The notes beneath the pieces were generated by a model that searched no databases, was not told the origin of the DNA, and worked only from the letters and a program-made list of their open reading frames with translations. Both the position numbers and the translations under genes were made by a program. This document shows positions 28,865 to 56,069 of a stretch of 56,069 nt of DNA, piece after piece (the first letter of the stretch is position 1; every line of letters starts with the position of its first letter). The stretch is from Gemmatimonadota bacterium (lineage in GTDB: Bacteria; Gemmatimonadota; Gemmatimonadetes; Gemmatimonadales; Gemmatimonadaceae), in contig PLLD01000193.1 of NCBI GenBank assembly GCA_003141205.1, forward strand, positions 9,483 to 65,551, read 5' to 3'.

Positions 28865-28893
28865 GGGATCGGATCTCCAACCGCGGCGCCGCG

Positions 28894-29610: not shown

Positions 29611-29637
29611 GTCGCCGATGCCGGGGAAGCGTTACGG
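29611..29637 (-). promoter_or_regulatory. Candidate ECF-type promoter (CCGTAACGC-N12-GGCGAC) in front of the lipoprotein-ompA pair
   Basis: The same bipartite motif, at the same distance from the ATG, occurs in front of the RDD gene (33796..33822). Confidence 0.4.
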
Positions 29638-29668
29638 TCCGGCGCGACGGCCGGGGGCCCGCGTGGGA

Positions 29669-33054: not shown

Positions 33055-33059
33055 GGCTC

Positions 33060-33674: not shown

Positions 33675-33795
33675 AACCCCCCCGGCACCGCCTGCGAGCC
33701 GATCCGTCGGCGCCTTCGCACATCGCGCCCGTGGTCCCGTTAACCCTGCAGGCCAAGGTATTACCCCCTTTCGGCATTGGGAAGGAACCGGCTCG

Positions 33796-33822
33796 CCGTA
33801 ACGCGGCGCGGCTTGCGGCAAC
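33796..33822 (+). promoter_or_regulatory. Candidate ECF-type promoter (CCGTAACGC-N12-GGCAAC) in front of the RDD gene
   Basis: Bipartite motif shared with 29611..29637. It lies 53 nt upstream of the ATG, versus 54 nt at the other site. Confidence 0.4.
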
Positions 33823-33875
33823 TCCGGTGGGCCGGACGAGTCCGCGTTCGGCCGGAAACCCGATAGGGGGGGTGC

Positions 33876-35345
33876 ATGACCGCGACCGATGCGACCGATT
33901 CAGCCAATCACGGGACGCCATTCACCGCGAGCGCCGCGCCGTCGCCGACCGGCGCCGACTCGACGGTGGAAGGACAGATCGCAGGATTCGGCGATCGCGC
34001 GCTCGCGCTGATCCTCGATACTGTCTTCTGCATTCTCGCATTCGCGGTCATTGGCAACTGGGCCGCCATCCGTTGGGGCGGGGCGACCAGCAGTGGGTTC
34101 AACCTTTCGGGGCTCCCCGCGCTCGTGACGATCTCCCTGACAGGGCTGGTGTGCTTCGTGTACTACTGGATTCTGGAGGGCACCCTTGGCGCGACGCTCG
34201 GCAAGGCCATCGTCGGCATACGCGTGCGTCGCGTCGACGGGGCGAAAGCCGATCTGCGGGCATCGCTCATACGCAACCTCCTGCGCGTCGTCGATGGGCT
34301 CGCGGTCTACCTCGTCGGCTGGATCATCGCCGCCTTCTCCCGTCTCCGACAGCGGCTCGGCGATCGCGTTGCCGGCACGGTCGTCATCCGGGCCCCCGGG
34401 GACCGCACCATCCGGTACGCGGGGGGCATCGCGCTGGCCGCAGCGAGTGTTGCGGCGATCATCGCGATCATATCGATTCGGCATGCCGCTGCGCAGACCA
34501 GTGTCGCGCCGCAAGCCGGATCGAGCCCGCCGGCTATCACCTCGACGGCGGCACAGGGGGACGCCCCGCCCCCTGCGGGGGGAGATGGCCTCACGCTGAG
34601 CACCATCACCTGGATGAGCGAGGCGGGTGGCGCGCCGCACAGCGGACCGTATACACCCGGCAGCCATGTGTTCGCGAAATACGAGATAACGGGTTTCGCG
34701 CACGGCCCGCAGGGACAGGTCAAGGTCGCGATCCGCATCCTCGCCGTCGATCCGACTGGCCTCGCCATGGGGGATTCCATTCCGAGCGATGTCGATGCGA
34801 CGGACCCGACGAGCGCTCCCATCTACGGCCATTTCGACATCCAGCTGCCTGATTACGCGCCTGCGGGCGGGTATGCGGCGCACCTCCATGTCCACGATGC
34901 GATCGGCGGTCGCGACGCGACGTTTGCGCCACCGTTCAGCGTGACTGCGCCTCCGGACGCTCCCGCCAGCAAGCTGGAAATGCGGGACCTGGGCCTTTCG
35001 ACGACCGACGGCGGCCAGGTACTCGCACACCCCGTATTTCATGCGGGCGAGACAGTGTACTTCACCGGTCGCGCGTTCGGCGTGCAATTCCGCGACGCCA
35101 ATCCGGATTTTCACGTCGACGTCCTCCTGCTCGGGCCGTCGGGGTCGACGATCCTGGGAAAGACCGATTGGGGCAAGATGATCGGCGCGGTCAATTATCG
35201 GCCGGCGACGTTCTTCGTCCCGGTCGACGGGACCGTCACGCTTCCCGCCAAGGCGGCGCCGGGCCCGTACGTGATCCGTCTTGGACTCCGAGACCTCGTG
35301 GCGCAGGCATCGCTGAATGCCGATGTCGCGTTCGATATGCAGTAG
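33876..35345 (+). CDS. RDD-family membrane protein with two C-terminal beta-sandwich-like extracytoplasmic domains
   Basis: RDD core: AGFGDRALALILD..YYWILEGTLGATLGKAIVGIRV..RNLLRVVDG. A further TM segment is followed by a roughly 270-aa repeated domain. Confidence 0.75.
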   Translation: MTATDATDSANHGTPFTASAAPSPTGADSTVEGQIAGFGDRALALILDTVFCILAFAVIGNWAAIRWGGATSSGFNLSGLPALVTISLTGLVCFVYYWILEGTLGATLGKAIVGIRVRRVDGAKADLRASLIRNLLRVVDGLAVYLVGWIIAAFSRLRQRLGDRVAGTVVIRAPGDRTIRYAGGIALAAASVAAIIAIISIRHAAAQTSVAPQAGSSPPAITSTAAQGDAPPPAGGDGLTLSTITWMSEAGGAPHSGPYTPGSHVFAKYEITGFAHGPQGQVKVAIRILAVDPTGLAMGDSIPSDVDATDPTSAPIYGHFDIQLPDYAPAGGYAAHLHVHDAIGGRDATFAPPFSVTAPPDAPASKLEMRDLGLSTTDGGQVLAHPVFHAGETVYFTGRAFGVQFRDANPDFHVDVLLLGPSGSTILGKTDWGKMIGAVNYRPATFFVPVDGTVTLPAKAAPGPYVIRLGLRDLVAQASLNADVAFDMQ

Positions 35346-35378
35346 CGATGCCGTAGCGATGCCGTAGCGATGCAGTAG
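35333..35378. repeat. 11-bp direct repeats (cgatgc[ca]gtag), about 4 units, overlapping the RDD stop
   Basis: Read directly. TAG triplets at 35343, 35354, 35365 and 35376 cover all three frames. Confidence 0.9.
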
Positions 35379-35418
35379 CGCGGACCGGCGCGCGTCGGTG
35401 CGAACGTGGGGACTCAGC

Positions 35419-35446
35419 TTGACAGGACCCGCTCCCCATGTAAGTT
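35419..35446 (+). promoter_or_regulatory. Candidate sigma70-type promoter of the ilv operon (TTGACA-N16-TAAGTT)
   Basis: Consensus -35 hexamer. The -10 box ends 9 nt before the leader-peptide ATG. Confidence 0.45.
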
Positions 35447-35455
35447 GCCCTGATC

Positions 35456-35551
35456 ATGCTGCCGTCCGCCGCGAGCCTTCTCCTCGTCCTCCTTATTGTC
35501 GTCCTGCTTATTGCGCAGGACCGTTCGGCGTTGGGGAGGCAGGCAGAGTAA
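35456..35551 (+). CDS. ilv leader peptide (31 aa, MLPSAASLLLVLLIVVLLIAQDRSALGRQAE)
   Basis: Twelve consecutive Leu/Val/Ile codons. The ORF lies between the promoter and a terminator hairpin, directly upstream of ilvD. Confidence 0.6.
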   Translation: MLPSAASLLLVLLIVVLLIAQDRSALGRQAE

Positions 35552-35575
35552 GCGGAGCAGTTCGACGGAAGCCGC

Positions 35576-35610
35576 AGCCCCTCCCCGACCGGGAGGGGCT
35601 GTTTCGTTCG
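35576..35610 (+). terminator. Attenuator terminator hairpin upstream of ilvD
   Basis: A perfect 10-bp stem (agcccctccc / gggaggggct) with a 5-nt loop, followed by gtttcgttcg. The competing anti-terminator pairing is 35533-35539 (ggggagg) with 35580-35586 (cctcccc). Confidence 0.6.
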
Positions 35611-35632
35611 TAGGCGCTTTACCCAGGAGATC

Positions 35633-37387
35633 ATGCGCTCCGACACAATCAAACGCGGGTTCGAGCGGGCACCGCACCGGAGCCTGCTGCGCGCGACGGG
35701 TCAGATCCGGGACGCCAGCGACTTCGACAAGCCCTTTGTCGCCGTCTGCAACTCGTACGTCGACATCATCCCGGGACACGTCCACCTGCAGGAGTTCGGC
35801 CGCGTCGTCAAGGCGGCAGTCCGTGCGGCCGGCGGTATCCCGTTCGAGTTCAATACGATTGGCGTCGACGACGGAATCGTGATGGGACACGAAGGGATGC
35901 GGTATTCCCTCCCCTCGCGCGAGCTGATCGCCGATTCGGTCGAGACGATGGCGCGGGCGCACTGCTTCGATGCCATGATCTGCATTCCCAACTGCGACAA
36001 GATCGTCCCGGGGATGCTCATGGGGGCCGCGCGGGTCAACATCCCGACGATCTTCGTTTCGGGCGGTCCCATGGCGGCCGGGACCGACCGCTCGGGCAAG
36101 GCGATCGACCTGATCTCGGTCTTCGAAGGGGTGGGTCAGCGCGCGGCGGGCACGATCGACGATGCCCGGCTCGAGGAGCTCGAAACGCTCGGCTGTCCCA
36201 CCTGCGGCAGCTGCTCGGGGATGTTCACGGCGAATTCGATGAACTGTCTGTGCGAGGCGCTGGGCGTTGCGCTGCCGGGGAACGGGTCGATCCTGGCGAC
36301 CTCGCCCGACCGCCACGCGCTGGCGGCCGAGGCCGGGCGCCGGCTGATCGAGCTGTGCCGGACCGATGTCCGCTTCCTCGATCTCGTCACCGCCCACGCG
36401 ATCGATAACGCGATGGCCCTCGACATGGCGATGGGCGGCTCGACCAACACCGTCTTGCATGTCCTCGCGATCGCGATCGAAGCCGGGGTCGAATATCCCA
36501 TCAGCCGATTCAACGCCGTGGCGGAGCGCATCCCCCACCTGGCCAAGGTCTCCCCCGCCTGGGATGGGCCTCGGCAATGGCACATGCAGGACGTCCATGC
36601 CGCGGGGGGCGTGCCGGCGATCCTCAAGGAGCTGTCGACCGTTCCGGGTGCGCTGCACCTCGACGCCCCCACGGTCACCGGGAAGACGCTCGGTGAGAAC
36701 CTCACGAGCGTCGTGAACCGCAATCCCGCATGCATCCGGCCCGCCGCGCACCCCCATTCGGCGCGCGGGGCGCTGTGCATCCTGTTCGGCAGCGTCGCGC
36801 CCGACGGCGCCGTGATCAAGGTGGGCGCCGTCGACCAGCACGAGATGACCTTTCGCGGGCCCGCTCGCGTGTTCGAGTGCGAGGAGGACGCCCTCGACGG
36901 GGTGCGCGCCAATGCGATCCAGTCCGGCGATGTCGTGGTCGTCCGCAACGAGGGGCCGCGCGGCGGGCCGGGGATGCGCGAGATGCTGTCCCTGACGAGC
37001 ATGCTCAAGGGGATGCCGTTGGGCGACGAAGTCGCCCTCCTCACCGATGGCCGCTTCTCGGGCGGCACGCGAGGGCTCTGCATCGGACACATCTCGCCCG
37101 AAGCGGCCGAAGGAGGGCCGATCGGACTCGTGCGCGACGGGGACATCATCACGATCGACCTGGCCGCGCGGGCACTCGAGATCGAGGTTTCCGCAGCGGA
37201 GCTCGCGGACCGCCTCGCGCGCTGGCGGCCGCCCGAGCGCAAGTATCACCGTGGGTGGCTCGCCCGCTATACGGCGATGGTGACGAACGCGAGCCGGGGG
37301 GCGGTACTCGAGGTCCCGGGCGATGGGACGCCGCGCGCCGCGAACGGCGCCGGCCGCGGCGCCATGCTGACCGAGGCGATGGCGTGA
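35633..37387 (+). CDS. ilvD: Dihydroxy-acid dehydratase
   Basis: [56 protein letters not shown] upstream. Confidence 0.95.
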
Positions 37388-39168
37388 GCGCACCCGCGCC
37401 GGACGCGCGCCGCACCGGGGCGCAGATCATGTGCGAAGCCCTGATCCGCGAGGGAGTGAACATCATCTTCGGGATCCCGGGAGGCGCCATCATGCCGTTC
37501 TACCACGCACTCCCGGAATACAAGGACCGCCTCCATCACGTTCTGTGTCGCCATGAGCAGGGAGCAGGGCACGCGGCGGAAGGGTACGCGCGCTCGACCG
37601 GGCGTGTGGGGGTCTGCGTCGCGACGAGCGGGCCGGGCGCCACGAACCTCGTGACGCCGATCGCCGATGCCTGGATGGACTCGACCCCCCTCGTTGCCAT
37701 CACCGGGCAGGTCTCCAGCCTCGTCCTCGGGCGGGACGCGTTCCAGGAAACCGACATCACCGGAATCTCCGTACCAATCACGAAGCACAACTATTTGGTA
37801 AAGCGGGTCGAGGAGATCCCCGCGGTCATGCACGAGGCATTTCATCTGGCGTCGACGGGACGGCCGGGCCCGGTCCTGGTGGACATCACGAAGGACGCGC
37901 AGCAAGCGCACACGATCCCCACGTGGGATGCGCCACTGTCGCTGCCCGGTTACAAGCCCACGCTCGAGGGGCACAAGCGGCAGGTCCGTGAGGCCGTCGC
38001 GGTGATGCTGTCCGCAGAGCGCCCCCTGATCCTGGCGGGAAACGGCGTGATTCAATCCGGCGCCAGCGCCGAGCTGCGCGAATGGGCGGAGCTCCTCGGC
38101 GTGCCGGTGATCACGACGCTGCACGGACTCGGCGGATTCCCCGAGGAGCACCCGCTGAGCCTGGGGATGCCCGGGATGCACGGCTGGGTGCACGTGAACC
38201 GTGCGATCCAGGAATGCGATGTCCTCTTCAACATCGGCGGTCGATTCGACGACCGCGTGACCGGGAAGGCGTCGTCCTTCGCCCCCCGGGCCCGCGTCAT
38301 CCACGTCGACATCGACCCGTCCGAGATCGGGAAGAACGTCGCGGTCGCGGTGCCGATCGTCGGCGATGCACGCCGCGTGCTCCGAGCCCTTCTCGACGAC
38401 CTCGCGCACCGGCCCGGGCCTGCGGTCGAGGCACGCCGCGCCGCGCGCGCGACGTGGCTCACGCATATCCGCGACATGCAGGATCGTTTTCAGGGGCGGC
38501 ACAAGGAGTTGAACCGGCCCGAGACCACATCGCTCATGCCGCATGATGTGTACGCGGCGCTCAACCGCGCGTTCATCGAGCACTCGGCCCGGGGCGAAGG
38601 ATACCGCGTCGTGTCCGACGTGGGGCAGCACCAGATGTGGGCCGCGCAGCTGCTCGATTGGCGGCGCCCGCGCACCCACATCACGAGCGGGGGTGCGGGC
38701 ACGATGGGGTTCGCGGTGCCCGCCGCGCTCGGTGTCGCGCTCGCACATCCGGACGAGACCGTCTGGGCGATCGTCGGCGATGGCGGCTTCCAGATGACGA
38801 ATCAGGAAATCGCGACGATGGTGCAGGAAAAGGTGCGCAACGTGAAGATCGCCATCGTGAACAACGGCTACCTCGGCATGGTGCGCCAATGGCAGGAGCT
38901 GTTCGAAGGGAAGCGGTACAGCGGGACGCCGCTCACCGGGCCCGACTTCGCGGCATTGGCGAAGGCCTACGGCGTGCGCGGTGTGACGGTGGAGCAGGTC
39001 GGGGACGTGGATCCCGCGATCGCGTCGGCGTGGGCGCACGACGGCGTGGTGCTGCTGGATTTCCGCGTCGAGCGCGAGGTCAACGTGTTCCCCATCGTGC
39101 CGCAGGGACAGAGCATCGGGCAGATGCTCGTCGCCGTGGGCGAGCACGCCGAGGGGGACGACACGTGA
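37384..39168 (+). CDS. ilvB: Acetolactate synthase large subunit (biosynthetic)
   Basis: The GTG forms a GTGA overlap with the ilvD stop. Motifs are [24 protein letters not shown] and the ThDP motif [23 protein letters not shown]. Confidence 0.92.
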
Positions 39169-39758
39169 CGCATACGATCGTCGCCCTGGTCCAGGACCAT
39201 CCCGGCGTCCTGCACCGCGTCATCAGCCTCATCCGCCGTCGCGGATACAACATCGAGAGCCTGACCGTCGGCCACAGCGAGACGCCCGGTGTGAGCCGCA
39301 TGACTCTGGTCGTGGAAGCGGAGAACGTGGAGCAGGTGACGAAGCAACTCAACCGATTGATCGAGGTGCTCAAGGTGTTCGACGTGACGAATGACCCGAC
39401 CGTGGAGCGCGAGACCGTGCTCGTCAAAGTGCAGGCGCCGGCCTCGGCCCGGGCCGGACTGATCGCCCTGACGGAATCCGCCGGTGCGCGCGTCGCCGAT
39501 GTCGGATCCAATACGATGGTGCTCGAGGTCACGGACCTCCCGGAGAAGGTCGAGGCATTCATCGACCTGTGCCGCCCGCTCGGCATCAAGGAGATGATCC
39601 GGAGCGGCCGGATCGCGATGACGCGTGGATCGGGCGGCGGCGCGGGCGCCCGCGCGACCGGGACACCGGGTGGCGCCGCCGGCCGGGCGGCCCCCACCGG
39701 CCAGCCGGTGGATTCGAGTCCCCGGCCGTATCGCGCGCAAGCCGACGGCGACGAATAA
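39165..39758 (+). CDS. ilvN: Acetolactate synthase small (regulatory) subunit, with Gly/Ala/Pro-rich C-terminal tail
   Basis: The GTG forms a GTGA overlap with the ilvB stop. The ACT domain reads HTIVALVQDHPGVLHRVISLIRRRGYNIESLTV. Confidence 0.9.
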   Translation: MTHTIVALVQDHPGVLHRVISLIRRRGYNIESLTVGHSETPGVSRMTLVVEAENVEQVTKQLNRLIEVLKVFDVTNDPTVERETVLVKVQAPASARAGLIALTESAGARVADVGSNTMVLEVTDLPEKVEAFIDLCRPLGIKEMIRSGRIAMTRGSGGGAGARATGTPGGAAGRAAPTGQPVDSSPRPYRAQADGDE

Positions 39759-39802
39759 CTCTTTTTTTCTCTCTCCTTTCTCCTCTCTCCCTCCTCCTCT
39801 CT
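39759..39802. other. 44-nt uninterrupted polypyrimidine (C/T only) tract filling the ilvN-ilvC spacer
   Basis: Read directly. Every base from the ilvN stop to 1 nt before the ilvC ATG is C or T. There is no purine-rich SD. Confidence 0.97.
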
Positions 39803-39803
39803 A

Positions 39804-40825
39804 ATGGCTAGACTGTACTACGACGCAGATGCCGACCTCGGCCGGCTCGCCAAGCGCACGATCGCCATCATCGGCTTCGGCAGTCAGGGACACGCCCACG
39901 CCCTCAACTTGCGTGACAGCGGGCTCGACGTCCGGGTTGGACTGCACCCCGAGTCGAAGAGCCGCGCGAAGGCGGAGGCGGCGGGACTCGTCGTCCGATC
40001 GGTCGCGGATGCCGCGCGCGATGCCGACATGATCATGCTGCTGACGCCGGATACGGGACAGGCCGCGCTCTACAAGACGAGTATCGCGCCGCATTTGACG
40101 GCGGGGAAGACGCTGATGTTCGCACACGGCTTCAACATCCGGTACACGCAGATCGTCCCCCCCGCGACTGTGGATGTGAGCATGGTCGCGCCGAAATCGC
40201 CGGGGCACCGGGTGCGGGAGTTATACGCGCAGGGTGGCGGCACGCCGGCGCTGGTCGCCGTGGAGCAGGACGCGAGCGGTGGCGCGCTGGCCGACGCCCT
40301 GGCCTATGCCAAGGGGATCGGATGCACGCGGGCGGGCGTGCTGGAGACCACCTTCACCGAGGAGACCGAGACCGATCTCTTCGGGGAGCAGGCGGTGCTG
40401 TGCGGCGGGGTGTCCGCTCTCGTGAAGGCCGGCTTCGAGACGCTCGTGGCGGCCGGATATCAGCCCGAGGTCGCCTACTTCGAGTGCATGCACGAGCTCA
40501 AGCTCATCGTCGACCTCATGTATCAGGGCGGGCTCAACTACATGCGGTACTCCGTGTCGGACACGGCGGAGTACGGCGACTACATCGCCGGCCCGCAGAT
40601 CATTGGACCGGAGGCGCGGCTGGCCATGCAGAAGCTCCTGGCCGATGTCCGGAACGGGACCTTCGCAAACAATTGGATCGCCGAGAACGTGAATGGCCGG
40701 CCGGCGTTCAACGCGTACCGGCGGCAGGACGTCGAGCACCCGATCGAGCGGGTCGGTCGCGAGCTCCGGCGGATGATGCCCTTCGTGCAGCCCAAGGAAG
40801 TCGTTCCCGGAGCGGGAGGCGCCTA

Positions 40826-40826
<1 letters not shown>
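39804..40826 (+). CDS. ilvC: Ketol-acid reductoisomerase (class I)
   Basis: [33 protein letters not shown]..; 340 aa. Confidence 0.95.
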
Positions 40827-42055
<1,229 letters not shown>

Positions 42056-42114
42056 CGGACGCAGCCGGGCCGTTTTGGTTCCAACTGACCTAACCCGCGC
42101 GGAGGAGGCCTGTC

Positions 42115-43389
42115 ATGCCCGGACGCAATTTCCTGTTCGTTCCCGGTCCGACCAATGTCCCGGATCGCATCCTGTCGGCGATGCACCGGCCGATGGAGGA
42201 TCACCGCTCCTCCGTCTTTCCGGAGCTGACGCGCGGGATCCTGCGCGATCTCAAGGCCGTCTTCCGGACGGACCGCGGACAGGCATTCGTCTTTCCGGCC
42301 ACCGGAACGGGCATGTGGGAAACCGCCCTGGTGAACACGCTGTCGCCCGGCGACCGCGTCCTCGCCCCGCGCTTCGGACAATTCAGCCATCTCTTCATTG
42401 ATTGCGCGCAGCGGCTCGGTCTGAAGGTCGATGTGCTCGAGACGCCGTGGGGCGAAGGCGCGCCGCCCGATCGGATCCGCCAGGCCCTGGCCGCGGACAC
42501 CGCGCACGAGATCAAGGGCGTGCTCATCGTGCACAACGAGACGGCGACGGGCGTGACCAGCGACATCGCCGCCGTCCGCACGGCGATCGATGCCGCGAAG
42601 CATCCCGCCCTGCTGTACGTGGATGGCGTAAGCGCGATCGGCAGCTTGCCCTTCGAGATGGACGCCTGGGGTGTCGACGCTGCCATCACGGGCTCGCAGA
42701 AGGGGTTCATGCTGCCCGCGGGCCTCGGGATCATCGCCATGAGCGAGCGCGCGCTCGCTCGGCGCGAGACGGCGAAATGCGCCCGCGTCTTCTTCGATCT
42801 CGGCGACATGATCAAGGCGAATGCGACGGGCTACTTCCCGTACACGCCGTCGATCCCGCTGTTGTACGGGTTGCGCGCCTCGCTCGACATGCTGCTCGAG
42901 GAAGGTCTCGACGCTGTCTACGCGCGCCACCACCGGCTGGCGGAAGGGTGCCGGCGCGCCGTGGCGGCGTGGGGCCTTACGCTGTGTGCGAAGGAGCCCA
43001 AGTGGAACTCCGACACGGTGAGCGCGATCATGGTGCCCGCCGGGATCAACGGGGCGGATGTGATCGACGTCGCGTTTCGGCGATACAACATGGCGCTGGG
43101 CGCCGGCCTGAGCGAAGTCGCCGGCAAGCTGTTCCGCATCGGCCACCTGGGCGATCTCAACGAGCTGATGCTGCTGGGCGCTCTCGCCGGTGCCGAAATG
43201 GCGATGCGCGATGTCGGGATCCAGGTGACGCCCGGGTCGGGCGTCGGAGCCGCGGCGGAGTATTACCGCTCGACGGCTCCCGCGCTCGGCGCGAAGGGAA
43301 ATAGCGCGGTGTCGCCGGATGCGCAGTCCCGCGTGGCGGGCGCGCGACCCACCGGGGCGGACAAGGCCCGCGCCGCGGTCCCCGCGTGA
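42115..43389 (+). CDS. sga: Class V aminotransferase, serine-glyoxylate aminotransferase-like
   Basis: [23 protein letters not shown]...; PLP-Lys region [21 protein letters not shown] upstream. Function inferred partly from neighbours. Confidence 0.75.
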
Positions 43390-44369
43390 GTTTCACTCGG
43401 CACGAGCCCGCCCGCCCGCGCCTGCATCGCAGCGAGCTGGCGGTGCCGGCCTCGCGTCCGGAATTGTTCGCGAAGGCGGTGACGGGCGACGCGGACTACG
43501 TCTTCCTCGACCTCGAGGACGCCGTCGCGCCCGCCGAGAAGGAGGGGGCGCGCGCGCAGGCCATCCGCGGGCTGCGCGAGCACGATTGGCGCGCGCACGG
43601 CAAGACGATCTCGCTGCGCATCAACGGGCTCGACACTCCGTACATGTATCGCGATGTCGTCGATGTCATCGAGGCCGCGGGCGACCGCCTCGACACCGTG
43701 CTCATTCCCAAGGTCGGCACGACCTCGGATGTGTACATGGTCGATGCGCTGCTCACCCAGATCGAGGACGCGCGCGGATTCACGCGCCGCATCGGGCTCG
43801 AGGTGCTGATCGAAACGGCCCTCGGCATGGCGAACGTCGGGTCGATCGCGCAGTCGAGCCGCCGCCTCGAGGCGATGCACTTCGGTGTGGCGGATTATTC
43901 CGCGAGCGTGCGCGCGCGGACGACGAGCATCGGCGGCCTGAACCCGGATTATCCGGGCGACCAATGGCACTTCGCGATCTCCCGCATGGTCGTCGCGTGC
44001 CGGGCGTACGGGCTGCGTCCGATCGATGGGCCGTTCGGCGATTTCAAGGATCCGGACGGGTATGCGGATGCCTGTCGCCGGGGCCGCGCGCTCGGGGTGG
44101 AGGGAAAGTGGGCCATCCATCCCTCTCAGATCGCCGCCGCGAACCAGTGGTTCACGCCGGACGCCCCCGAGGTCGGCCGCGCGCGGCGCATCCTCTCCGC
44201 GATGGCCGAGGCGGCCGCGGCAGGGCGCGGGGCCGTGCAGCTGGACGGCAAGATGATCGACGCGGCATCGGCGCGGCAGGCGCAGACGATCGTCGCGCTG
44301 GCGGACGCGATCGAGGCACGGAGCACTTCCCAGACGCCGCGGCCGCAGATGGCTGCGGCGGCGGGATAG
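43386..44369 (+). CDS. mcl: HpcH/CitE-family lyase, L-malyl-CoA/beta-methylmalyl-CoA lyase-like
   Basis: GTG in a GTGA overlap with sga. Motifs are [30 protein letters not shown] and the WAIHPSQI region. Confidence 0.75.
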
Positions 44370-44377
44370 GAGAATCC

Positions 44378-45610
44378 ATGGACATTCACGAATATCAGGC
44401 GAAAGAGCTGCTCTCGAATTTCGGTGTCCCCGTGCCGCGCGGGAACGTCGCGTACACGCCGGACCAGGCGGTGTATTGCGCGCGCGAGATCGGCGGCAAC
44501 CGGTGGGTGCTCAAGGCGCAGATCCATTCGGGCGGGCGGGGACAGGCGGGCGGGGTCCGCGTCTGCGGGAGCGAGCACGAGGTGCACGCGGCGGCGAGTG
44601 AGCTCCTCGGGGCACGGCTGGTCACGAAACAGACCGGCCCGCAGGGCAAGCTCGTCCAGCGGCTGTACGTCGAGGCGGCGGTGCCGATCGCGAAGGAGCT
44701 CTACATCGGATTCGTGCTCGACCGCCGGTCGGAGCGCGTGTGCGTCGTCGCGACGCCCGAGGGAGGGATGGAGATCGAAGAGATCGCGGCGCAATCCCCG
44801 GAGAGTCTCCTGCGGGTCGTGATCGAGCCGGCCGTTGGGATGCAGGCGTTCCAGGCGCGGGAGCTCTGCTTCGGACTCGGCATCGAGGCCGCGCAGCTGC
44901 CGGACGCCACGCGCGCCGTTCTCGGCGCCTACCGCGCGTTTCGCGACCTCGACGCCACGATGGTCGAGATCAACCCGCTGGCCGTGACGGTCGATGGGCG
45001 CGTCCTCGCGCTCGACGCGAAGATGACCTTCGACGACAACGCGCTGTTCCGCCGCCCGACGGTGCGCGAGCTCCGGGACTATACCGAGGAGGACCCGCGC
45101 GAGGCGGAAGCCTCGAAGCACGGACTCAACTACGTCGGCCTCGACGGCGAGATCGGCTGCATCGTCAACGGCGCCGGACTCGCCATGGCGACGATGGACA
45201 TGATCAAGCTGGCGGGGGCCGAGCCCGCGAACTTCCTGGATGTCGGGGGCGGCGCCTCGCCGGAGCGCGTCGCGGCCGCGTTCCGCATCGTGCTGGGGGA
45301 CCCGCGCGTGAAGGTGGTGCTCGTCAACATCTTCGCCGGGATCAATCGCTGCGACTGGATCGCGCAGGGTGTCGTGCACGCCGCACGGGAGCAGCACATC
45401 AGCATCCCGATCGTCGCACGCCTCGCGGGCACCAATGTGGAGGAAGGGCGCCGCATTCTGCGGGAGAGCGGGCTCAGCATCATCACGGCGGATACGCTTG
45501 CGGACGCGGCGCAAAAGGCGGTGGATGCGTTGCATTCGGTGACGGGGGGACCGGCCCGCCTGAATGGCGCCGTCCCCGGTGCGCCGACGCTGGCGGGGGC
45601 CGCACGATGA
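44378..45610 (+). CDS. mtkA: ADP-forming acyl-CoA ligase beta subunit, malate-CoA ligase (malate thiokinase) MtkA-like / SucC paralogue
   Basis: The internal ATG of ORF 43319..45610 gives [20 protein letters not shown], an ATP-grasp N-terminus. Specificity is inferred from context. Confidence 0.7.
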
Positions 45611-46518
45611 GCATCCTCATCGACGGCTCCACGCGCGTCATCCTCCAGGGTTTCACGGGGGACAAAGCGACGTTCCACGCGAAGGAGATGATCGCGTACG
45701 GGACGACGCTGGTCGGCGGGGTCACCCCCGGCAAGGGCGGCACGACCCACATCGGGCTCCCGGTCTTCAACACCGTCAAGGACGCGGTCCGCGAGACCGG
45801 CGCGACCGCCACGGGGATCCTCGTACCCGGCCCGTTCGCGGCCGACGCCATCATGGAGGCGGCCGACGCGGGGCTGCAGCTGATCGTCGCGATCACGGAC
45901 GGGATCCCGGCGCAGGACATGATGCGCGTCAAGCGTTACCTCAAGCGGTACCAGCGCGAGCGCCGCTCCACCCTCATCGGCCCGAACTGCGCCGGCGTGA
46001 TCAGTCCGGGCAAGGCGATGATCGGGATCATGCCGGGGCACATCTACAAGGAAGGGCGCGTGGGGATCGTCGGTCGCTCCGGCACGCTGGGATACGAGGC
46101 CGCGGCCCAGATGGCCGCGCTCGGGATCGGCGTGAGCACGAGCGTCGGGATCGGCGGCGATCCGATCAACGGCTCGTCGTTCCTCGATATCCTCGAGCGG
46201 TTCGAGCAGGACAGCGAGACGGACGCGGTGCTCATGATCGGCGAGATCGGAGGGCCGCAGGAAGCCGAGGCCGCGCAATGGGTCAGCCAGAACATGTCGA
46301 AGCCCGTCGTCGGGTACGTCGCGGGCCTCTCGGCCCCGACCGGCCGCCGCATGGGCCACGCGGGTGCCATCATTTCCGCGTTCGGCGACAGCGCCGCGGA
46401 GAAGGCGGAGATCATGCGAAGCTCGGGGCTCGCGGTGGCGCCCAGCCCCTCGGAGCTGGGCTCGACGATGGCGCAGGTCCTGGCGCGGACCGGACGGTCC
46501 ACGCCGGCGGTGGCCTGA
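45607..46518 (+). CDS. mtkB: Acyl-CoA ligase alpha subunit, malate-CoA ligase MtkB-like / SucD paralogue
   Basis: ATGA overlap with mtkA. Motifs include [28 protein letters not shown] and the phospho-His loop GHAGAI. From memory, [17 protein letters not shown] and [14 protein letters not shown] resemble methylotroph MtkB rather than SucD. Confidence 0.75.
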
Positions 46519-46520
46519 GC

Positions 46521-47492
46521 GTGGCCGTGCGACCACGCGTCGTGGTGACCCGCCGCGTGCCCGCGGCGGTCGAGGATCGCGCCACGGCGCTATTCGACGC
46601 GACCCTCAACCCGACGGACACGCCGTTCACCATGGGGCAGCTCCAGAACGCGATGCGCACGGCCGATGCCCTCCTCCCGACCGTGACCGATAAGATCACG
46701 GCCGAGGTGCTCGGGACGACGCCGCGGCGCGCGAAGATCGTCGCGAACTTCGGGGTGGGCTTCAACAACATCGACGTGGCCGCGGCCAAGCAGAATGGGA
46801 TCGTGGTCACGAATACGCCGGATGTGCTGACCGACGAGACCGCGGACACGGCGATCGCGCTGCTGCTCATGGTGGCACGCCGCCTGGGCGAAGGGGAGCG
46901 CGAGCTCCGCGCCGGGAAGTGGACCGGCTGGCGTCCAACGCATCATCTCGGGACCAAGGTGACGGGTAAGACGCTGGGCGTGATCGGGCTCGGACGGATC
47001 GGGCGTGCGGTGGCGAAGCGCGCGTCGGCGGGGTTTGGGATGCGGGTGGTGTACTACGATCCTCCGGTGTCGGCGGCGGATGGGAAGGCCGTCGGGGCCG
47101 AGCCGCGTGACTCGCTCGAGGCGGTATTGCGCGAGTCGGACTTCGTCTCGCTGCATGCACCGGCCCTGCCGGAGACCCGGCATCTCATGAACGCCGAGCG
47201 GCTGGCGCTGATGCAGCGCCACGCGTTCCTGATCAATACGGCCCGCGGCGACCTGGTCGATGAGGCGGCGCTGGTGCGTGCGCTGCAGGCGAAGACGATC
47301 GCGGGCGCGGGACTCGATGTGTTCGAGAAGGAGCCGGTGGTCACGCCCGAGCTGCTGGCCATGGAGAACGTGGTATTGCTGCCGCACCTCGGAAGCGCGT
47401 CGACGGAGACGCGAGTGGCGATGGGGATGCGCGCGCTGGACAACCTCGAGGCGTTCTTTTCCGAGAAGCCGCCGCGCGACCGCGTGGCGTAG
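46521..47492 (+). CDS. hprA: D-isomer-specific 2-hydroxyacid dehydrogenase, glyoxylate/hydroxypyruvate reductase-like
   Basis: GTG 2 nt after the mtkB stop. NAD motif GVIGLGRIGRAVAKR and catalytic region NTARGDLVDE..LPHLGSAS. Confidence 0.75.
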   Translation: MAVRPRVVVTRRVPAAVEDRATALFDATLNPTDTPFTMGQLQNAMRTADALLPTVTDKITAEVLGTTPRRAKIVANFGVGFNNIDVAAAKQNGIVVTNTPDVLTDETADTAIALLLMVARRLGEGERELRAGKWTGWRPTHHLGTKVTGKTLGVIGLGRIGRAVAKRASAGFGMRVVYYDPPVSAADGKAVGAEPRDSLEAVLRESDFVSLHAPALPETRHLMNAERLALMQRHAFLINTARGDLVDEAALVRALQAKTIAGAGLDVFEKEPVVTPELLAMENVVLLPHLGSASTETRVAMGMRALDNLEAFFSEKPPRDRVA

Positions 47493-47740
47493 GAGGCAAC
47501 GGGGCCGCCATGATCCCTGCCAGCGTGCATGGGCAAAGCTGCTAAGTCAGCGGCTTTCCATGTCTAGAGCGTCATGACATCGCACTGCGCCAACTGCTTC
47601 TCGATTGGCTGATCAAGCTGCAACATGTATACGGTCACCCAGAGTTCGAGTGGTCGCGCGCCGACTTTTAAGTGGCTGCGAAGTTGTCGTATCTCACCCT
47701 ACGGAGGGTGATGATCTTACAACGACGCGCCGGCCCGCTG

Positions 47741-47752: not shown

Positions 47753-48154
47753 ATGCCACACGCGCAGACCGGCCGAATCGCCCGCGGGGCCGCGCTGGCG
47801 ATCCCCGACGGGGCGCTCGACGAAGCGGTCACCCGTCTCGTTGCGACGTTTGCCCCGACGCGCATCTATCTATTCGGTTCTCGAGCCCGTGGTGACGCCG
47901 GCCCGGATAGTGATTACGATCTGCTGGTCGTCGTCCGGGCTTCAAGCGTCCCTGGATTCCGGCGGGATCAGGTAGCGTATCGGGCACTCCGAGGCATTGC
48001 GCTGCCCAAAGACGTGATGGTATGGACGGAGGCGGAGTTCGGGGATCGGGTCGGTTTCCCGGCTTCACTTCCGGCAACTGTTGCACGCGAAGGCCAGGTT
48101 TTGTACGAGCCTGACGTCCCGAGTGAGACGGGTGGGAGATCGGGTGCCCTCTGA
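47753..48154 (+). CDS. Nucleotidyltransferase-domain protein (MNT antitoxin of an HEPN/MNT pair)
   Basis: LFGSRARGDAGPDSDYDLLVV is the pol-beta-type NTase motif (GS..D.D). 133 aa. Confidence 0.8.
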   Translation: MPHAQTGRIARGAALAIPDGALDEAVTRLVATFAPTRIYLFGSRARGDAGPDSDYDLLVVVRASSVPGFRRDQVAYRALRGIALPKDVMVWTEAEFGDRVGFPASLPATVAREGQVLYEPDVPSETGGRSGAL

Positions 48155-48578
48155 GCCGCCCGCGCCGTCAGGGCTGACGAAGCTGTCAAAGAAAGCCGCG
48201 ACGCGTGAGTGGTTGGTCAACGCCGAACACGACCTACGCGCGGCTGAATTGCTGGCCGCCGCGACTAGTCCGTTGCCGGACGTGGCAGTGTATCATTGCC
48301 AGCAGGCAGCCGAAAAGGCGCTCAAAGCGTTCCTGTTCCACCGCGATATCCCGTTTCGCAAAACCCATGATCTCGCCGAGCTGGGAGACGAGCGTGTGCG
48401 TCTCGATGCGTCGTTGGCTGAAGTAGTCGACCGGGCCGTCGACCTGACGCCGTTTGCGTGGCAGTTCCGCTATCCCGCCGCAGACCGGGGTGAGCCATCG
48501 GCCGAAGACGCGCAAGAAGCGATTGAGACGGCTCAGGCCACATACGACGCGGTTCGCACCCGGATTGGAGCGGCGTAA
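48144..48578 (+). CDS. HEPN-domain protein (putative toxin of the HEPN/MNT pair)
   Basis: WLVNAEHDLRAAELL..YHCQQAAEKALKAFL..FRKTHDL contains an R-x4-H motif. A GTG at 48144 with GGGAGA 5 nt upstream overlaps the MNT gene by 11 nt. ORF-track start is 48081. Confidence 0.75.
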   Translation: MPSEPPAPSGLTKLSKKAATREWLVNAEHDLRAAELLAAATSPLPDVAVYHCQQAAEKALKAFLFHRDIPFRKTHDLAELGDERVRLDASLAEVVDRAVDLTPFAWQFRYPAADRGEPSAEDAQEAIETAQATYDAVRTRIGAA

Positions 48579-49380: not shown

Positions 49381-51240
49381 CGGTTCATCCCCGCGCGCGC
49401 GGGGAACGCTATGCCCTCGTGTTGCTAGACCGGGATGCCAGCGGTTCATCCCCGCGCGCGCGGGGAACGCGTCCGGTGCCGATACCGCCTTTTGCCGCCC
49501 ATGCGGTTCATCCCCGCGCGCGCGGGGAACGCGCGAGTTGCCCCGGGGCGCCGAGGAAGATATCCGGTTCATCCCCGCGCGCGGGGGGAACGCGTGAGCG
49601 TCGCCGATGTCGACGAGGGAAGTGCCGGTTCATCCCCGCGCGCGCGGGGAACGCTCCGATGCCGGGGCGGTTGCACGCCGTGCCGCCGGTTCATCCCCGC
49701 GCGTGCGGGGAACGCTGGGGGAAGCACCGCGGTCGTGGGCTGCGCGACGGTTCATCCCCGCGCGCGCGGGGAACGCTACCAAACCGCGCCGACCGCGATC
49801 CACAGGATCGGTTCATCCCCGCGCGCGCGGGGAACGCTCGACGAGCCCGGTACATACCCCAATCCCAATCGGTTCATCCCCGCGCGCGCGGGGAACGCCA
49901 GAGTCGGCACACCTGGATGCCAACCTGTTTCGGTTCATCCCCGCGCGCGCGGGGAACGCCGTCGCCCGAATCGCGCGCTTACCCCGCGTGACGGTTCATC
50001 CCCGCGCGCGCGGGGAACGCCCAACCTGCAACATCATCCCGGGCTGCGCCGTCGGTTCATCCCCGCGCGCGCGGGGAACGCTGGTGTTCCCGGTGAGGCC
50101 ACGGAAGGTGTGCCGGTTCATCCCCGCGCGCGCGGGGAACGCTCGTCTACCCGCGTCTCGGGAACAGGTGTTTGCGGTTCATCCCCGCGCGCGCGGGGAA
50201 CGCCAAGAGCGGCTCTACGACGGCGTGCGCACGGTCGGTTCATCCCCGCGCGCGCGGGGAACGCGACCCACAAACCGGCCAGAGTTCCGGTATTGCCGGT
50301 TCATCCCCGCGCGCGCGGGGAACGCCCTACCGCCTGGAGCTTCTTCAGCCCCTGATACGGTTCATCCCCGCGCGCGCGGGGAACGCGGCGCCCGAGCCAC
50401 TTGCACACGTTCAACAGACGGTTCATCCCCGCGCGCGCGGGGAACGCGGTATCGAGACCCTTCGAGAGCTGTTCGATCGCGGTTCATCCCCGCGCGCGCG
50501 GGGAACGCGGCAACTCGTCCATCGTTTCCTTGACCTGCTCGGGTTCATCCCCGCGCGCGCGGGGAACGCCTGCATGACGCACGCGTCGATGATCGGAAGG
50601 GCGGTTCATCCCCGCGCGCGCGGGGAACGCCCTGTGTACGCCGATCCGGACGGAAACGAATTCGGTTCATCCCCGCGCGCGCGGGGAACGCCCGCGACAC
50701 AGAAATCACAGCGCTGACTGTCACGGTTCATCCCCGCGCGCGCGGGGAACGCGGCGCGATCACGCTCGACACCACGAGCCTGACCGGTTCATCCCCGCGC
50801 GCGCGGGGAACGCCGTTGCCGTCTATGGCGAGAGAGGGTATAGCGCGGTTCATCCCCGCGCGCGCGGGGAACGCATGTCACTCGTCGGTATTCTGATTGC
50901 GCTCATCGGTTCATCCCCGCGCGCGCGGGGAACGCTGCATGAAGGGGCTGGTGCAAGGCGGCCTCGTCGGTTCATCCCCGCGCGCGCGGGGAACGCGACA
51001 TCCACAAGTGCCAAGCGTGCGGTGAGTACGGTTCATCCCCGCGCGCGCGGGGAACGCGCATGACCGAAAGGAAGTTCGCCGTGCCGAAGCGGTTCATCCC
51101 CGCGCGCGCGGGGAACGCGAGTGGAGATAGACCATTGCGGCATCTTCCGGCGGTTCATCCCCGCGCGCGCGGGGAACGCTCCGCCGAGTTGGCGACACTA
51201 CCCGGTGGGGACGGTTCATCCCCGCGCGCGCGGGGAACGC
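49381..51240 (-). CRISPR. Type I-E CRISPR array: 31 repeats of 29 nt, 30 spacers (29 of 32 nt, one of 33 nt)
   Basis: The minus-strand repeat is GCGTTCCCCGCGCGCGCGGGGATGAACCG, in canonical I-E form and orientation. Periodicity is 61 nt. The array is adjacent to cas2. Variant repeats lie at the cas-distal end. Confidence 0.97.
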
Positions 51241-51315: not shown

Positions 51316-51624
51316 CTACGAGGCAGCCGCTTGGTCGGCGGAAGGCAGCGGCGCGTCAAAACGGACCAGCGTGAGCCCGTCAAAGTCGATCGGCTCCCGA
51401 CGATTCGGTCCCACCGCGGCGAATGCGAAGCCCGAATCCGTTGGCGCAGACCACGCGATGACCGCTGATCCATCGCCGATCAGCAGCTGGACTTCGTCCC
51501 AGATACGGTCGCGCGTTCGGGCGGAATAGTTGCCGACGTACACCCCGGCCCGGATCTCGGCTAGCCAGAGCGAGAGACGTCCTCGAAGCCGCGGCGGTGC
51601 ATTCTCAACCACGATGGCCATCAT
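51316..51624 (-). CDS. cas2: CRISPR-associated endoribonuclease Cas2 (I-E type)
   Basis: MMAIVVENAPPRLRGRLSLWLAEIRAGVYVG matches the Cas2e pattern. It overlaps cas1 by 20 nt. Confidence 0.9.
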   Translation of the reverse strand: MMAIVVENAPPRLRGRLSLWLAEIRAGVYVGNYSARTRDRIWDEVQLLIGDGSAVIAWSAPTDSGFAFAAVGPNRREPIDFDGLTLVRFDAPLPSADQAAAS

Positions 51625-52543
51625 CGCCAGATCTCTCCTCGGGGAGCGCGGGAGGTTGTCCTTCGGGCGCGTCAAGGGGCGCCGATAATCCGCTCGCCAC
51701 CAGCAGATCGCCGATCGTCGGAATGACACGCTCCAGCAGGTTCGTGCGGCGAAAGGCATCGCGGCACGCGATGCGAACTTGGCGCTCTACAGGCTCACGC
51801 GGCGCCTGCCCGCGCTGGATACGAGCGGCAACCGCAAATGCCGCGGGCACCACCGTCTCAAACTTGAAAATGTCGGCAATGTCGTAGACGAAGCTCAGGG
51901 GCTTGCCACTGTGGAGAAAGCCTATCGCGGGCGCGTATCCCGCCGCTAAGACCGCCGCTTCACACAGGCCATACAGGCATGCCGTGCCGGCCGATAGGCA
52001 GCGATTCGGTACATCGGCAGCCTCCCAGGCTTCGGGATCGTAGCGCCGCGCCTCCCACGTCACGCCGTGGACACGTGCGAACTGTTGGTACATCCGTTTC
52101 ACGCGAGCGCCTTCGATGCCGCGCAGCTGGTCCACCGATCGGCGCGCCGGCGGTTCTTCGCCGAAGCGCAACGTATACATCGCCCGAACGACACGCAGCC
52201 GCGCCGCGTCGTCGAGCGCAGCACGCGCCTGGTACAGAAGACGGTCAGCCCGGGCCCCGCCCGGCTGGCCAGATGCATAGAGGCGCACACCGGCCTCACC
52301 CACCCACACCAACAGGCATCCGACCCGCGCGGCGAGCGCGACCGCGGCGTGCGTAATTCGGGTTCCGGGCTCGAGCATGAGGCAGCTCAGACCACCGATC
52401 GGTATCTGAACCCGAGCGCCGTTCTGGTCGACGAGCACGAACGCACCGTCGATCACGTCGATCTGGCCGTACTCCAGAAAGACGATCGCCGCTCGATCCT
52501 TGATCGGGATCGGCCGCAGCGGCACGTACGGCGTGTCCGTCAC
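51605..52543 (-). CDS. cas1: CRISPR-associated endonuclease Cas1 (I-E type)
   Basis: 312 aa. PIKDRAAIVFLEYGQIDVIDGAFVL..LMLEPGTRITHAAV is Cas1e-like. Confidence 0.93.
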   Translation of the reverse strand: MTDTPYVPLRPIPIKDRAAIVFLEYGQIDVIDGAFVLVDQNGARVQIPIGGLSCLMLEPGTRITHAAVALAARVGCLLVWVGEAGVRLYASGQPGGARADRLLYQARAALDDAARLRVVRAMYTLRFGEEPPARRSVDQLRGIEGARVKRMYQQFARVHGVTWEARRYDPEAWEAADVPNRCLSAGTACLYGLCEAAVLAAGYAPAIGFLHSGKPLSFVYDIADIFKFETVVPAAFAVAARIQRGQAPREPVERQVRIACRDAFRRTNLLERVIPTIGDLLVASGLSAPLDAPEGQPPALPEERSGDDGHRG

Positions 52544-52550
52544 GGTGTAA

Positions 52551-53270
52551 TCAAACCCGCCGAATCAGCATCAATCCGCAGCCGAATGCCTTCGCCCTCC
52601 CGAATCCCGTCCCTATCGTCTCGATTAACAACGCCGGATCACGCACCTCGAGAACACCCTCGAAGTCGAGTACGCCGAGCCTCGCTGGCGCGCCCGGTCG
52701 TTCGATGGCAAGCGTGCGGTAGGTGGTGACGGAAACGGCCGTTCCTGATGCACCGGCGCCGCCAGTGCCAACGTCGGGCAGTACAAATCCGGCTTTCGCA
52801 CCCTGCGCGGCCAGCCACGCGATACCTGCGCTCTCAATTGCCGAACGCCGCGCCAGCGCCCGCTCAGGGCCGTGCGTCTGATAGATCGCATCCATCACGA
52901 CATCACACCTGACCCCCCGTCTCTTCGTTCGGTCTTGACGGGACACGGTGGCATTTGCTCGAAGCATAAACGTGAGACGGTCACCGACGCCGAGTCGTGG
53001 AGAGAATACTTTCGACTGATCGACGTCGAACAATCCATGCCGATCCTCCGGCCGGCGTCTCGAGAGCAGGTAGAATACGCCGGTATCTGCCTCACGCCAC
53101 AAGAAATCGCGTTCACGGTCGGGCGCATCGGCAAAAAGGGTCCACACAAGCCGATGCGTGGCGAGCGTTCGCGCCGATACGTCCGGCGGGATGAACATCG
53201 CACGAAGAGCGGAGGCAGGTGCGTCCCGACGCAGGCGTATGCGCGTCAGATACTGTATCGTCGACATCAT
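52551..53270 (-). CDS. cas6e: Cas6e (CasE/Cse3) pre-crRNA endoribonuclease
   Basis: YLTRIRLRRD...THRLVWTLF... with C-terminal GRAKAFGCGLMLI. Position is between cas5e and cas1. Confidence 0.88.
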   Translation of the reverse strand: MMSTIQYLTRIRLRRDAPASALRAMFIPPDVSARTLATHRLVWTLFADAPDRERDFLWREADTGVFYLLSRRRPEDRHGLFDVDQSKVFSPRLGVGDRLTFMLRANATVSRQDRTKRRGVRCDVVMDAIYQTHGPERALARRSAIESAGIAWLAAQGAKAGFVLPDVGTGGAGASGTAVSVTTYRTLAIERPGAPARLGVLDFEGVLEVRDPALLIETIGTGFGRAKAFGCGLMLIRRV

Positions 53271-54033
53271 GCACCCAGGGTACCGTGACCGCTACCCGGC
53301 TCGATCAGGCCAACATCAATTGGCCGCTCGCGAAATTGCCATTGGGTACGATCTGCGTGTGCGTCACGGCGCGTCTGTCGCCGTAGCGGACGCAGTCCGG
53401 ACGAGAAGCCGTCACAGGGATCGTGCGTGACCTCCCGGCCCCATCCCTGTACCGGCCGGACCGCGACCGCTGCAATACCGCGCGCCGGATCCCGTCGCTG
53501 AGTGAAGGCATCCGCGAGCGTGGCAGCTGTCACGACCTCCGGGCCAAGGGGCAGACCGAAGGCGTTGGACTTGCGGCCAGCGTACAGGACGAAGGCGGGG
53601 CGGCGCAGCGCCTCCGCCAGATGGGCCAGCGACCATGCACCACTCGCCCGCGACCATATTGCGACGGTTGCCAAGGCATCCTGCCGATAGGCGCGCCGGG
53701 AGATGATAGTCGCGCGGTCGCTCGTATTCAATAAGGTGGCGCGCGTTATCGGCCCGCGCTCCGCCACACGCTTCACGGCCGACGCTGCCACGGCCTGCGC
53801 GGTGTGGTAGTCAGTGACCGGCGTCCCAGGCGCGTCGAGCCTGACCGCGAATCCATAGCCGCTGTCGAGCGCGTTGTGCGCCTCCTGATCGTCACGAGTG
53901 ATGCCGAGTGCCGCGGCTATCAACCCCAGGATCGCCGAGCGGCTCGGCTGAACCCACGATCCCCGGGCCTCGCCAACGGCGATGTCGCCCCAGCTTACCA
54001 GAGGCGCGTACAGCGTCAGCAGTAGAAACTCCA

Positions 54034-54034
<1 letters not shown>
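53267..54034 (-). CDS. cas5e: Cas5e (CasD)
   Basis: The internal ATG gives MEFLLLTLYAPLVSWGDIAVGEARGS..PSRSAILGLIAAALG. A TGATG junction links it to cas7e. Confidence 0.88.
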
Positions 54035-55822
<1,788 letters not shown>

Positions 55823-55826
<4 letters not shown>

Positions 55827-56069
55827 GCGGCCGCCTCCGGCTCTTTCCCTTGCTTGCGGGGCCGTGGAGCCCGCTGGCGATCATCCAGCGGCATGCCCAG
55901 CATCGTGAACATTTTCTCTCCCAGTTTCGAATGCCCATTCAAAGTCGCGACGAGATAGAACCGCGCCGTTACAAGCCGCCGCACAGTATCGATCGGCAGG
56001 CTCTCCATTGAGCACCACCTGTCAAAGATCTCCGCCGCCTTTCGCGCCAGCGTTCTGATAAAGCGTTCG
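55823..56069 (-). CDS. cas8e: Cas8e (CasA/Cse1) C-terminal fragment; continues off the window
   Basis: The open frame runs to the window edge and its stop overlaps the cse2 start. Identity is assigned by position in the I-E operon only. Confidence 0.55.

Follow-up and report, generated by a model that had tools for sequence, protein, structure and literature searches.

A serine-cycle gene module that probably came to adjoin the ilv-leuA operon by deletion in a peat Gemmatimonadaceae lineage

The window analyzed here is a stretch of 56,069 nucleotides from a Gemmatimonadota bacterium (contig PLLD01000193.1, about 70% G+C). Ten closely spaced genes occupy its + strand between 35.4 and 47.5 kb: ilvDBNC-leuA, for branched-chain amino acid (BCAA) synthesis, followed by the five-gene module sga-mcl-mtkA-mtkB-hprA. 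Comparison with related loci leads us to a reading in three parts that we regard, taken together, as likely. The five genes are the core of a serine-cycle cluster that is standard in Gemmatimonadota; on the simplest interpretation of the sequences, they came to lie beside ilv-leuA when a deletion confined to this lineage removed the intervening DNA; and read-through from the ilv promoter would now drive their transcription. Their position next to ilv-leuA is probably an accident and not a conserved metabolic design.

The five open reading frames (ORFs) that a first, sequence-only reading had assigned to the module were found on the + strand at the coordinates it gave. MtkA scored 685 bits against the NCBIfam model for the malate-CoA ligase beta subunit (NF010647; cutoff, 604 bits) and 550 bits against the SucC model. 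It is 64 to 71% identical to MtkA from the serine-cycle clusters of Methylocapsa aurea, Methyloversatilis, Hansschlegelia, Hyphomicrobium, and Paraburkholderia, and about 51% identical to three solved SucC proteins. A neighbor-joining tree places it with the MtkA sequences and separates it from those three SucC proteins; it also carries an MtkA-specific motif of 11 residues in the CoA-ligase domain, where SucC proteins have NIFGGIVRCD. The closest homologues, from metagenome-assembled genomes of Gemmatimonadaceae, have already been named malate-CoA ligase by NCBI and JGI. MtkB, whose profile evidence comes from generic SucD models only, is 66 to 78% identical to the product of the gene adjoining mtkA in methylotroph-named genomes.

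SucCD shares its fold and domains (ATP-grasp_2, Ligase_CoA, CoA_binding) with the window ligase, and it is conceivable, though extremely improbable, that the ligase is an ordinary SucCD and the block not a serine-cycle module at all. The generic SucC and SucD models also score above their cutoffs for the two subunits, and the PDB holds only SucC structures for a ligase of this kind (match, 430 bits). The window also encodes the 2-oxoglutarate dehydrogenase E1 component (sucA, 11650-14508, - strand), and the organism would accordingly be expected to require a succinyl-CoA synthetase; the window has none besides MtkAB, and no second SucCD-like paralogue was found in the 56 kb or in about 170 fetched loci. 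Against this stand the 135-bit lead of the MtkA-specific model, which is over its cutoff, the higher identity to the MtkA of methylotroph-named genomes than to SucC, the motif, and the constant linkage of mtkA to mcl, sga, and ppc across 90 loci. The choice of MtkAB over SucCD made by the sequence-only reading is thus upheld by the model score, the tree, and the motif; MtkA does not cluster with the three solved SucC sequences. Clustering with bona fide succinyl-CoA synthetases was what that reading had named as a possible objection.

For the lyase and the aminotransferase, the best PDB matches agree with the names first proposed. Mcl matched 5UGR, a malyl-CoA/beta-methylmalyl-CoA lyase, with 396 bits and 4L9Y with 306 bits, and entries for CitE (citrate lyase beta subunit) reached at most 125 bits; these scores rule out CitE or RipC as its identity. 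Mcl is 59 to 65% identical to the mcl product in the clusters of methylotroph-named genomes. The best match for Sga was the serine-glyoxylate aminotransferase 6PK1 (476 bits; other class V aminotransferases, at most 162 bits), and identity to Sga from the same clusters is 55 to 68%. Its best NCBIfam model is that of BhcA, of the beta-hydroxyaspartate cycle, yet the score of 596 bits lies below the cutoff of 650, no gene with a bhcB, bhcC, or bhcD function is present among the annotated window ORFs, and the neighbors are mcl, mtkAB, and hprA; BhcA was therefore rejected. HprA scored 324 bits against the glyoxylate reductase model PRK13243, below that model's cutoff, and matched the PDB entries 5AOV (259 bits) and 1GDH, a D-glycerate dehydrogenase (227 bits). 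We consider the annotation of the module settled as malate thiokinase plus malyl-CoA lyase, not SucCD plus CitE.

One genome per species, together with metagenome contigs, was scanned for related loci, and genes were mapped by tblastn. The order sga-mcl-mtkA recurs at 90 loci other than the window itself, with ppc following hprA in 48 of the 90 and a divergent gck upstream in 32. The commonest full layouts are sga-mcl-mtkA-mtkB-hprA-ppc with or without the preceding divergent glycerate kinase gene, and the same gene order is also found in a few Alpha- and Gammaproteobacteria. The Gemmatimonadota cluster shares with the window the order of the five genes and their tight or overlapping junctions, and its proteins are 69 to 91% identical to those of the window. 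Unlike that cluster, the window has neither gck nor ppc adjacent to the module and has ilvDBNC-leuA 59 nt upstream.

The enzyme set of the module is also that of methylotroph-named genomes (Methylocapsa, Methyloversatilis, Hansschlegelia, and Hyphomicrobium) and of the classical serine cycle of Methylorubrum extorquens. Most methylotroph-named genomes differ from the window in order, with sga-hprA ... mtkA-mtkB-ppc-mcl, whereas two Hyphomicrobium loci (L070 and L084) have sga-mcl-mtkA-mtkB as in the window. The methylotroph-named genomes differ further in that their HprA comes from another subgroup of the 2-hydroxyacid dehydrogenases (32 to 38% identity to the window protein), and methylotrophy of the window host is only putative.

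Metagenome runs that contain the window sequence come from peat and permafrost, and the host is an uncultured peat Gemmatimonadaceae. Modules of this kind are not new to the phylum: soil Gemmatimonadetes have been reported to possess a complete "malate-intermediated serine pathway" (Butterfield et al. 2016, PMC5103831).

At 75 of the 90 loci, at least 1.5 kb of sequence upstream of sga was available, which made them informative for the junction with ilv-leuA. ilvDBNC-leuA precedes sga in just one of these 75 relatives, L172, where a gap of 1.9 kb separates the two units. The arrangement is therefore as non-standard as first supposed. Whether the synteny is unique to this genome had been posed as a question that could undo the proposed metabolic link, and the answer comes close to yes: the adjacency is found only in the window lineage and, across a 1.9-kb gap with pseudogene remnants, in L172.

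The surroundings of the module in its relatives suggest how the adjacency arose. The DNA of the window is homologous to that of its closest relatives from the sga ATG (in L172, from 22 nt ahead of it) as far as the hprA stop codon. In the nearest subclade, in which MtkA is 85 to 91% identical to that of the window, sga is preceded by a conserved Cys-rich ORF of 62 to 66 codons and a G+C hairpin, and hprA is followed by a BlaI-type repressor gene; the window module lacks both the small upstream ORF and the blaI-like gene. Further upstream, the subclade has a gene of about 825 codons with a phosphoesterase domain, a VIT-VWA gene, and an extracytoplasmic function (ECF) sigma/anti-sigma pair. These intervening genes are intact in L090, L004, and L169. 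At another locus, L171, the sigma/anti-sigma, VIT-VWA, and phosphoesterase genes lie after ilvBNC-leuA, beyond two convergent pmbA/tldD genes.

L172 holds the closest relative of the window module (Sga, 87%; Mcl, 84%; MtkA, 90%; MtkB, 86%; and HprA, 82% identical), in the order ilvDBNC-leuA, 1.9 kb, sga-mcl-mtkAB-hprA-blaI. Its 1.9-kb gap contains a 60-codon ORF, three out-of-frame phosphoesterase fragments (L172:5594-6549), the small ORF, and the hairpin. This phosphoesterase pseudogene, whose counterpart is intact in L004, L090, L169, and L171, marks an intermediate stage of the deletion. In the window, the small Cys-rich ORF and its upstream region are absent, and the 59-nt spacer between leuA and sga includes CCGTTTTGGTTCC, similar to what immediately follows the hairpin in the relatives. 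In the ancestral state, then, the two units would have lain on the same strand, separated by the sigma/anti-sigma, VIT-VWA, and phosphoesterase genes and by the small ORF with its hairpin; the deletion would have run from intact intervening genes through the 1.9-kb remnant of L172 to the 59 nt of the window.

The small ORF itself was located at L172:6786-6986, L004:7515-7703, L167:5327-5518, and L169:7422-7613, as well as in L006, L086, L087, L089, and L090. Its product follows the pattern …LNERxKALQRAVYYLVWKRTGFGExCxHC…YPxHxxxCKAAEVExLVR and has no NCBIfam match; it may act as a small zinc-binding regulator, or else as a leader for the module.

The junction between leuA and sga is not an artifact of assembly. 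Its sequence is identical in three independent assemblies (L001 to L003), and two further peat runs each have a single DNA contig that spans it (X1, 38228-45204; X2, 40493-43839), which rules out a chimera. The internal junctions of the module agree with those first described, with a GTGA overlap between sga and mcl and an ATGA overlap between mtkA and mtkB, except that the gap between mcl and mtkA is 8 nt and not 9 nt. The 2-nt gap between mtkB and hprA holds if hprA starts at the GTG at 46521; gene callers place the start 6 or 21 nt further downstream. The claim that the module is translationally chained to ilv-leuA has to be given up. The leuA stop (42055) and the sga start (42115) are separated by the 59-nt spacer, which ends in GGAGGAGG-N8-ATG, and with this ribosome-binding site of its own, sga is not translationally coupled to leuA.

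Could the adjacency have been selected? In an adaptive operon, malyl-CoA cleavage under BCAA attenuation would feed acetyl-CoA to LeuA and CimA when BCAAs are scarce, and the tight spacing and matching strands of the two units, the presence of cimA-leuCDB in the same window, and the retention of the adjacency by two lineages (the window and L172) are in keeping with it. We nevertheless hold this to be very unlikely. The arrangement is present in only 1 of 75 informative relatives, and decaying pseudogene fragments in the L172 gap are the signature of neutral deletion; the L170 and L171 loci have the same short-leuA operon followed by unrelated convergent genes; and acetyl-CoA is a central metabolite that is not normally limiting for LeuA. 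The selected link between glyoxylate/malyl-CoA metabolism and BCAA synthesis put forward by the sequence-only reading thus finds no support in an adjacency confined to the window lineage and L172, with a decaying gap in the latter and an apparent origin by deletion. A related idea, which we also think unlikely though a little less so, is a very young chimeric operon, in which the deletion put the serine-cycle module under the Leu/Ile/Val attenuator and the result was kept because it was useful, for instance if it tied the supply of glyoxylate and acetyl-CoA to BCAA synthesis. If true, this would offer a datable case, found in nature, of an operon born by deletion, with the intermediates visible in relatives.

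With the deletion, the region natively upstream of the module would have gone. The distance from the end of the hairpin to the sga ATG is only about 15 nt in several relatives, so their promoter should lie upstream of the small ORF, in the region lost from the window. A search of the + strand from 35000 to 47500 for TTGnnn-N15-18-TAnnnT gave a single match, the promoter-like site of the ilv operon, and this pattern found no promoter-like motif within 41500 to 42114. Scanning 35 to 48.5 kb for the sigma-70 consensus gave no matches, and no canonical terminator was found in the same interval, in which three terminator-like matches were below shuffle expectation. The ten genes lie on one strand with gaps of at most 59 nt. 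Co-transcription is plausible, given the loss of the region originally upstream of the module and the lack of any second promoter-like site. On balance we favor, on this sequence anatomy, transcription of sga to hprA by read-through from the ilv promoter, which would place the module under the Leu/Ile/Val attenuator; a hairpin left over where leuA ends may weaken the read-through, and sga would be translated from its own ribosome-binding site.

Several points weigh against the joint reading of serine-cycle core, deletion, and read-through. HprA is a D-2-hydroxyacid dehydrogenase closest to glyoxylate reductases, and its role as a hydroxypyruvate reductase is putative. The genes gck, ppc, glyA, and those for C1 oxidation were not seen in the 56-kb window, which makes a complete serine cycle putative too. 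The ancestral gap of about 8 to 12 kb is a composite inferred from different contigs and not one record. The missing promoter motif is weak evidence, as a promoter consensus for Gemmatimonadota is not established. The branched hairpin at about 42023 to 42070, followed by UUUUGGUU, could terminate transcription at the end of leuA. Finally, no RNA contig spans 42055 to 42115 in four metatranscriptome runs: three were empty at the junction, and one (X18, peat) had a single 189-nt contig (42101-42289; depth, 9) whose start lies within the spacer, 14 nt ahead of the sga ATG, and could equally mark an independent 5' end.

These last observations bear on a rival account, in which the hairpin and U-run at the end of leuA terminate the ilv transcript and the module is transcribed alone from a cryptic promoter within the 3' end of leuA or within the spacer. 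The hairpin with its UUUUGGUU tract and the position of the sole RNA contig, which begins at 42101 with none on the leuA 3' end, speak for it. The hairpin, however, is branched, is not among the matches of the terminator scan, and has a fold no better than that of shuffled sequence (z = 0.9); the stretch from 41500 to 42114 has no promoter-like motif; and one 189-nt contig from a sparse metatranscriptome defines no 5' end. We regard separate transcription as rather unlikely and retain read-through from the ilv promoter as the probable arrangement.

By family enzymology, the predicted reactions of the module are the conversion of serine and glyoxylate to hydroxypyruvate and glycine (Sga), of hydroxypyruvate to glycerate (HprA), of malate to malyl-CoA (MtkAB), and of malyl-CoA to acetyl-CoA and glyoxylate (Mcl). 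Tblastn found neither gck nor ppc in the 56-kb window, and no genes for glyA, for methylene-tetrahydrofolate supply, or for methanol or formate oxidation are present among its annotated ORFs; gck and ppc would therefore be encoded elsewhere if the cycle is complete. Judged from family knowledge and relatives, the module could serve C1 assimilation, or it could serve glyoxylate/glycolate and glycine-serine metabolism. A module for glyoxylate/glycolate or glycine-serine interconversion in place of C1 assimilation would be compatible with the anatomy, and we entertain it tentatively: gck and ppc are unlinked from the block in the window's subclade, HprA belongs to the glyoxylate-reductase type, and the window has no genes of methanol or C1 metabolism. 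On the other side, gck and ppc have stayed in the cluster in more distant Gemmatimonadota, and Gemmatimonadetes genomes pair the serine pathway with a PQQ methanol dehydrogenase and tetrahydromethanopterin-dependent formaldehyde oxidation (PMC5103831).

The features of the ten-gene region are collected in Table 1.

Table 1. Features of the ilv-leuA operon and the adjoining serine-cycle module
Feature	Coordinates	Strand	Evidence or remark
Promoter-like site of ilv operon, TTGACA-N16-TAAGTT	35419-35446	+	Sequence pattern; function inferred
Predicted leader peptide ORF rich in Leu/Ile/Val, MLPSAASLLLVLLIVVLLIAQDRSALGRQAE	35456-35551	+	Read from sequence
Predicted attenuator terminator, CAGCCCCTCCCCGACCGGGAGGGGCTG then TTTCGTT (G+C hairpin and T-run)	35575-35608	+	Sequence, conserved in L170
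ilvD (dihydroxy-acid dehydratase)	35633-37387	+	Pfam ILVD_EDD on identical gene in L001
ilvB (acetolactate synthase, large subunit)	37384-39168	+	TPP_enzyme N/M/C domains; overlaps ilvD by 4 nt
ilvN (acetolactate synthase, small subunit)	39165-39758	+	ACT and ALS_ss_C domains; overlaps ilvB by 4 nt
ilvC (ketol-acid reductoisomerase)	39804-40826	+	KARI_N and KARI_C domains
Short leuA (2-isopropylmalate synthase catalytic core, 400 aa)	40853-42055	+	NF002086, Pfam
leuA-sga spacer, read as deletion scar	42056-42114	+	Contains CCGTTTTGGTTCC and GGAGGAGG ribosome-binding site
sga (serine-glyoxylate aminotransferase, class V)	42115-43389	+	PDB match 6PK1
mcl (malyl-CoA lyase)	43386-44369	+	PDB matches 5UGR, 4L9Y
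mtkA (malate-CoA ligase beta subunit)	44378-45610	+	NF010647, tree, motif
mtkB (malate-CoA ligase alpha subunit)	45607-46518	+	Overlap with mtkA, identity to methylotroph-named neighbors
hprA (D-2-hydroxyacid dehydrogenase, glyoxylate/hydroxypyruvate reductase type)	46521-47492	+	PRK13243, PDB 5AOV/1GDH

A single attenuator ahead of the ilv genes, as first proposed, is present as sequence anatomy. The leader ORF has 31 codons and includes SLLLVLLIVVLLI, and GGGGAGG (about 35533-35539) could pair with CCTCCCC to form a possible anti-terminator. The promoter-like site, the leader ORF, the possible anti-terminator pairing, and the terminator hairpin are all conserved in the relative L170, in which the promoter-like layout is TTGACA-N16-TAGCTT and the leader homologue is MSVASGLLLSLIVVLLIVIGRDHLSLGRRTG. 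An Rfam scan of 33 to 49 kb (E ≤ 1) gave no match, so the ilv leader falls in no described RNA family. Leader-peptide attenuation of ilv/leu operons is classical in enterobacteria, and the layout here resembles theirs, with a promoter, a short ORF with Leu/Ile/Val runs, alternative hairpins, and a terminator ahead of ilvD. It differs in its Gemmatimonadota host, in the absence of an Rfam match, and in that the operon may extend into five unrelated genes. Just upstream of the promoter-like site, four tandem copies of the 11-nt unit ATGCAGTAGCG occupy 35337 to 35380.

The leuA gene at the end of the operon is of a short form. LeuA scored 599.6 bits against NF002086 (cutoff, 532), matching only profile positions 4 to 382 of 516, and its Pfam domains are HMGL-like and HCS_D2 only, without the LeuA_dimer regulatory domain. 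The five closest homologue clusters (73 to 80% identical) are also short; the next homologues (at most 73% identity) are mostly full-length proteins of about 550 residues, with a few further short forms. Truncation of leuA by the deletion was rejected, as L170 (7975-9198), L171 (3495-4718), and L172 (4097-5218) share the short form with different downstream contexts. The missing domain suggests a feedback-insensitive isopropylmalate synthase in one Gemmatimonadaceae subclade. A separate cimA-leuC-leuD-leuB operon lies at 23304 to 28222, and its CimA, with 632 bits against the citramalate synthase model TIGR00977 (cutoff, 450), points to a citramalate route to isoleucine. leuCDB directly abuts ilvD in L170; in the window, an insertion of about 7.4 kb separates the two and carries OmpA-family, CHAT-TPR, anti-sigma/ECF sigma, and RDD-family genes (28283-35345).

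Downstream of hprA, the flank found in relatives is replaced by an island of lower G+C content. A nucleotidyltransferase gene, with a weak match to the MntA antitoxin model, and a HEPN gene (47753-48578) stand immediately after hprA, where relatives have the BlaI-type repressor. They are followed by a CRISPR array (49504-51120; 29-nt repeat CGGTTCATCCCCGCGCGCGCGGGGAACGC, 61-nt period), within which the ORFs called are probably spurious, and by adjoining type I-E cas genes (cas2, cas1, cas6e, cas5, cas7, and cse2; 51560-56069, - strand). The G+C content of the region with the array and the cas genes is 0.64 to 0.67.

Taken with its relatives, the window would show successive stages of two neighboring operons fusing through loss of the DNA between them. 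The coupling of BCAA and glyoxylate metabolism that it suggests at first sight is best seen as the rare and recent product of a lineage-specific deletion and is not to be read as conserved metabolic design. Together, window and relatives also give further evidence of a wide distribution of serine-cycle genes among the Gemmatimonadota of soil and peat.

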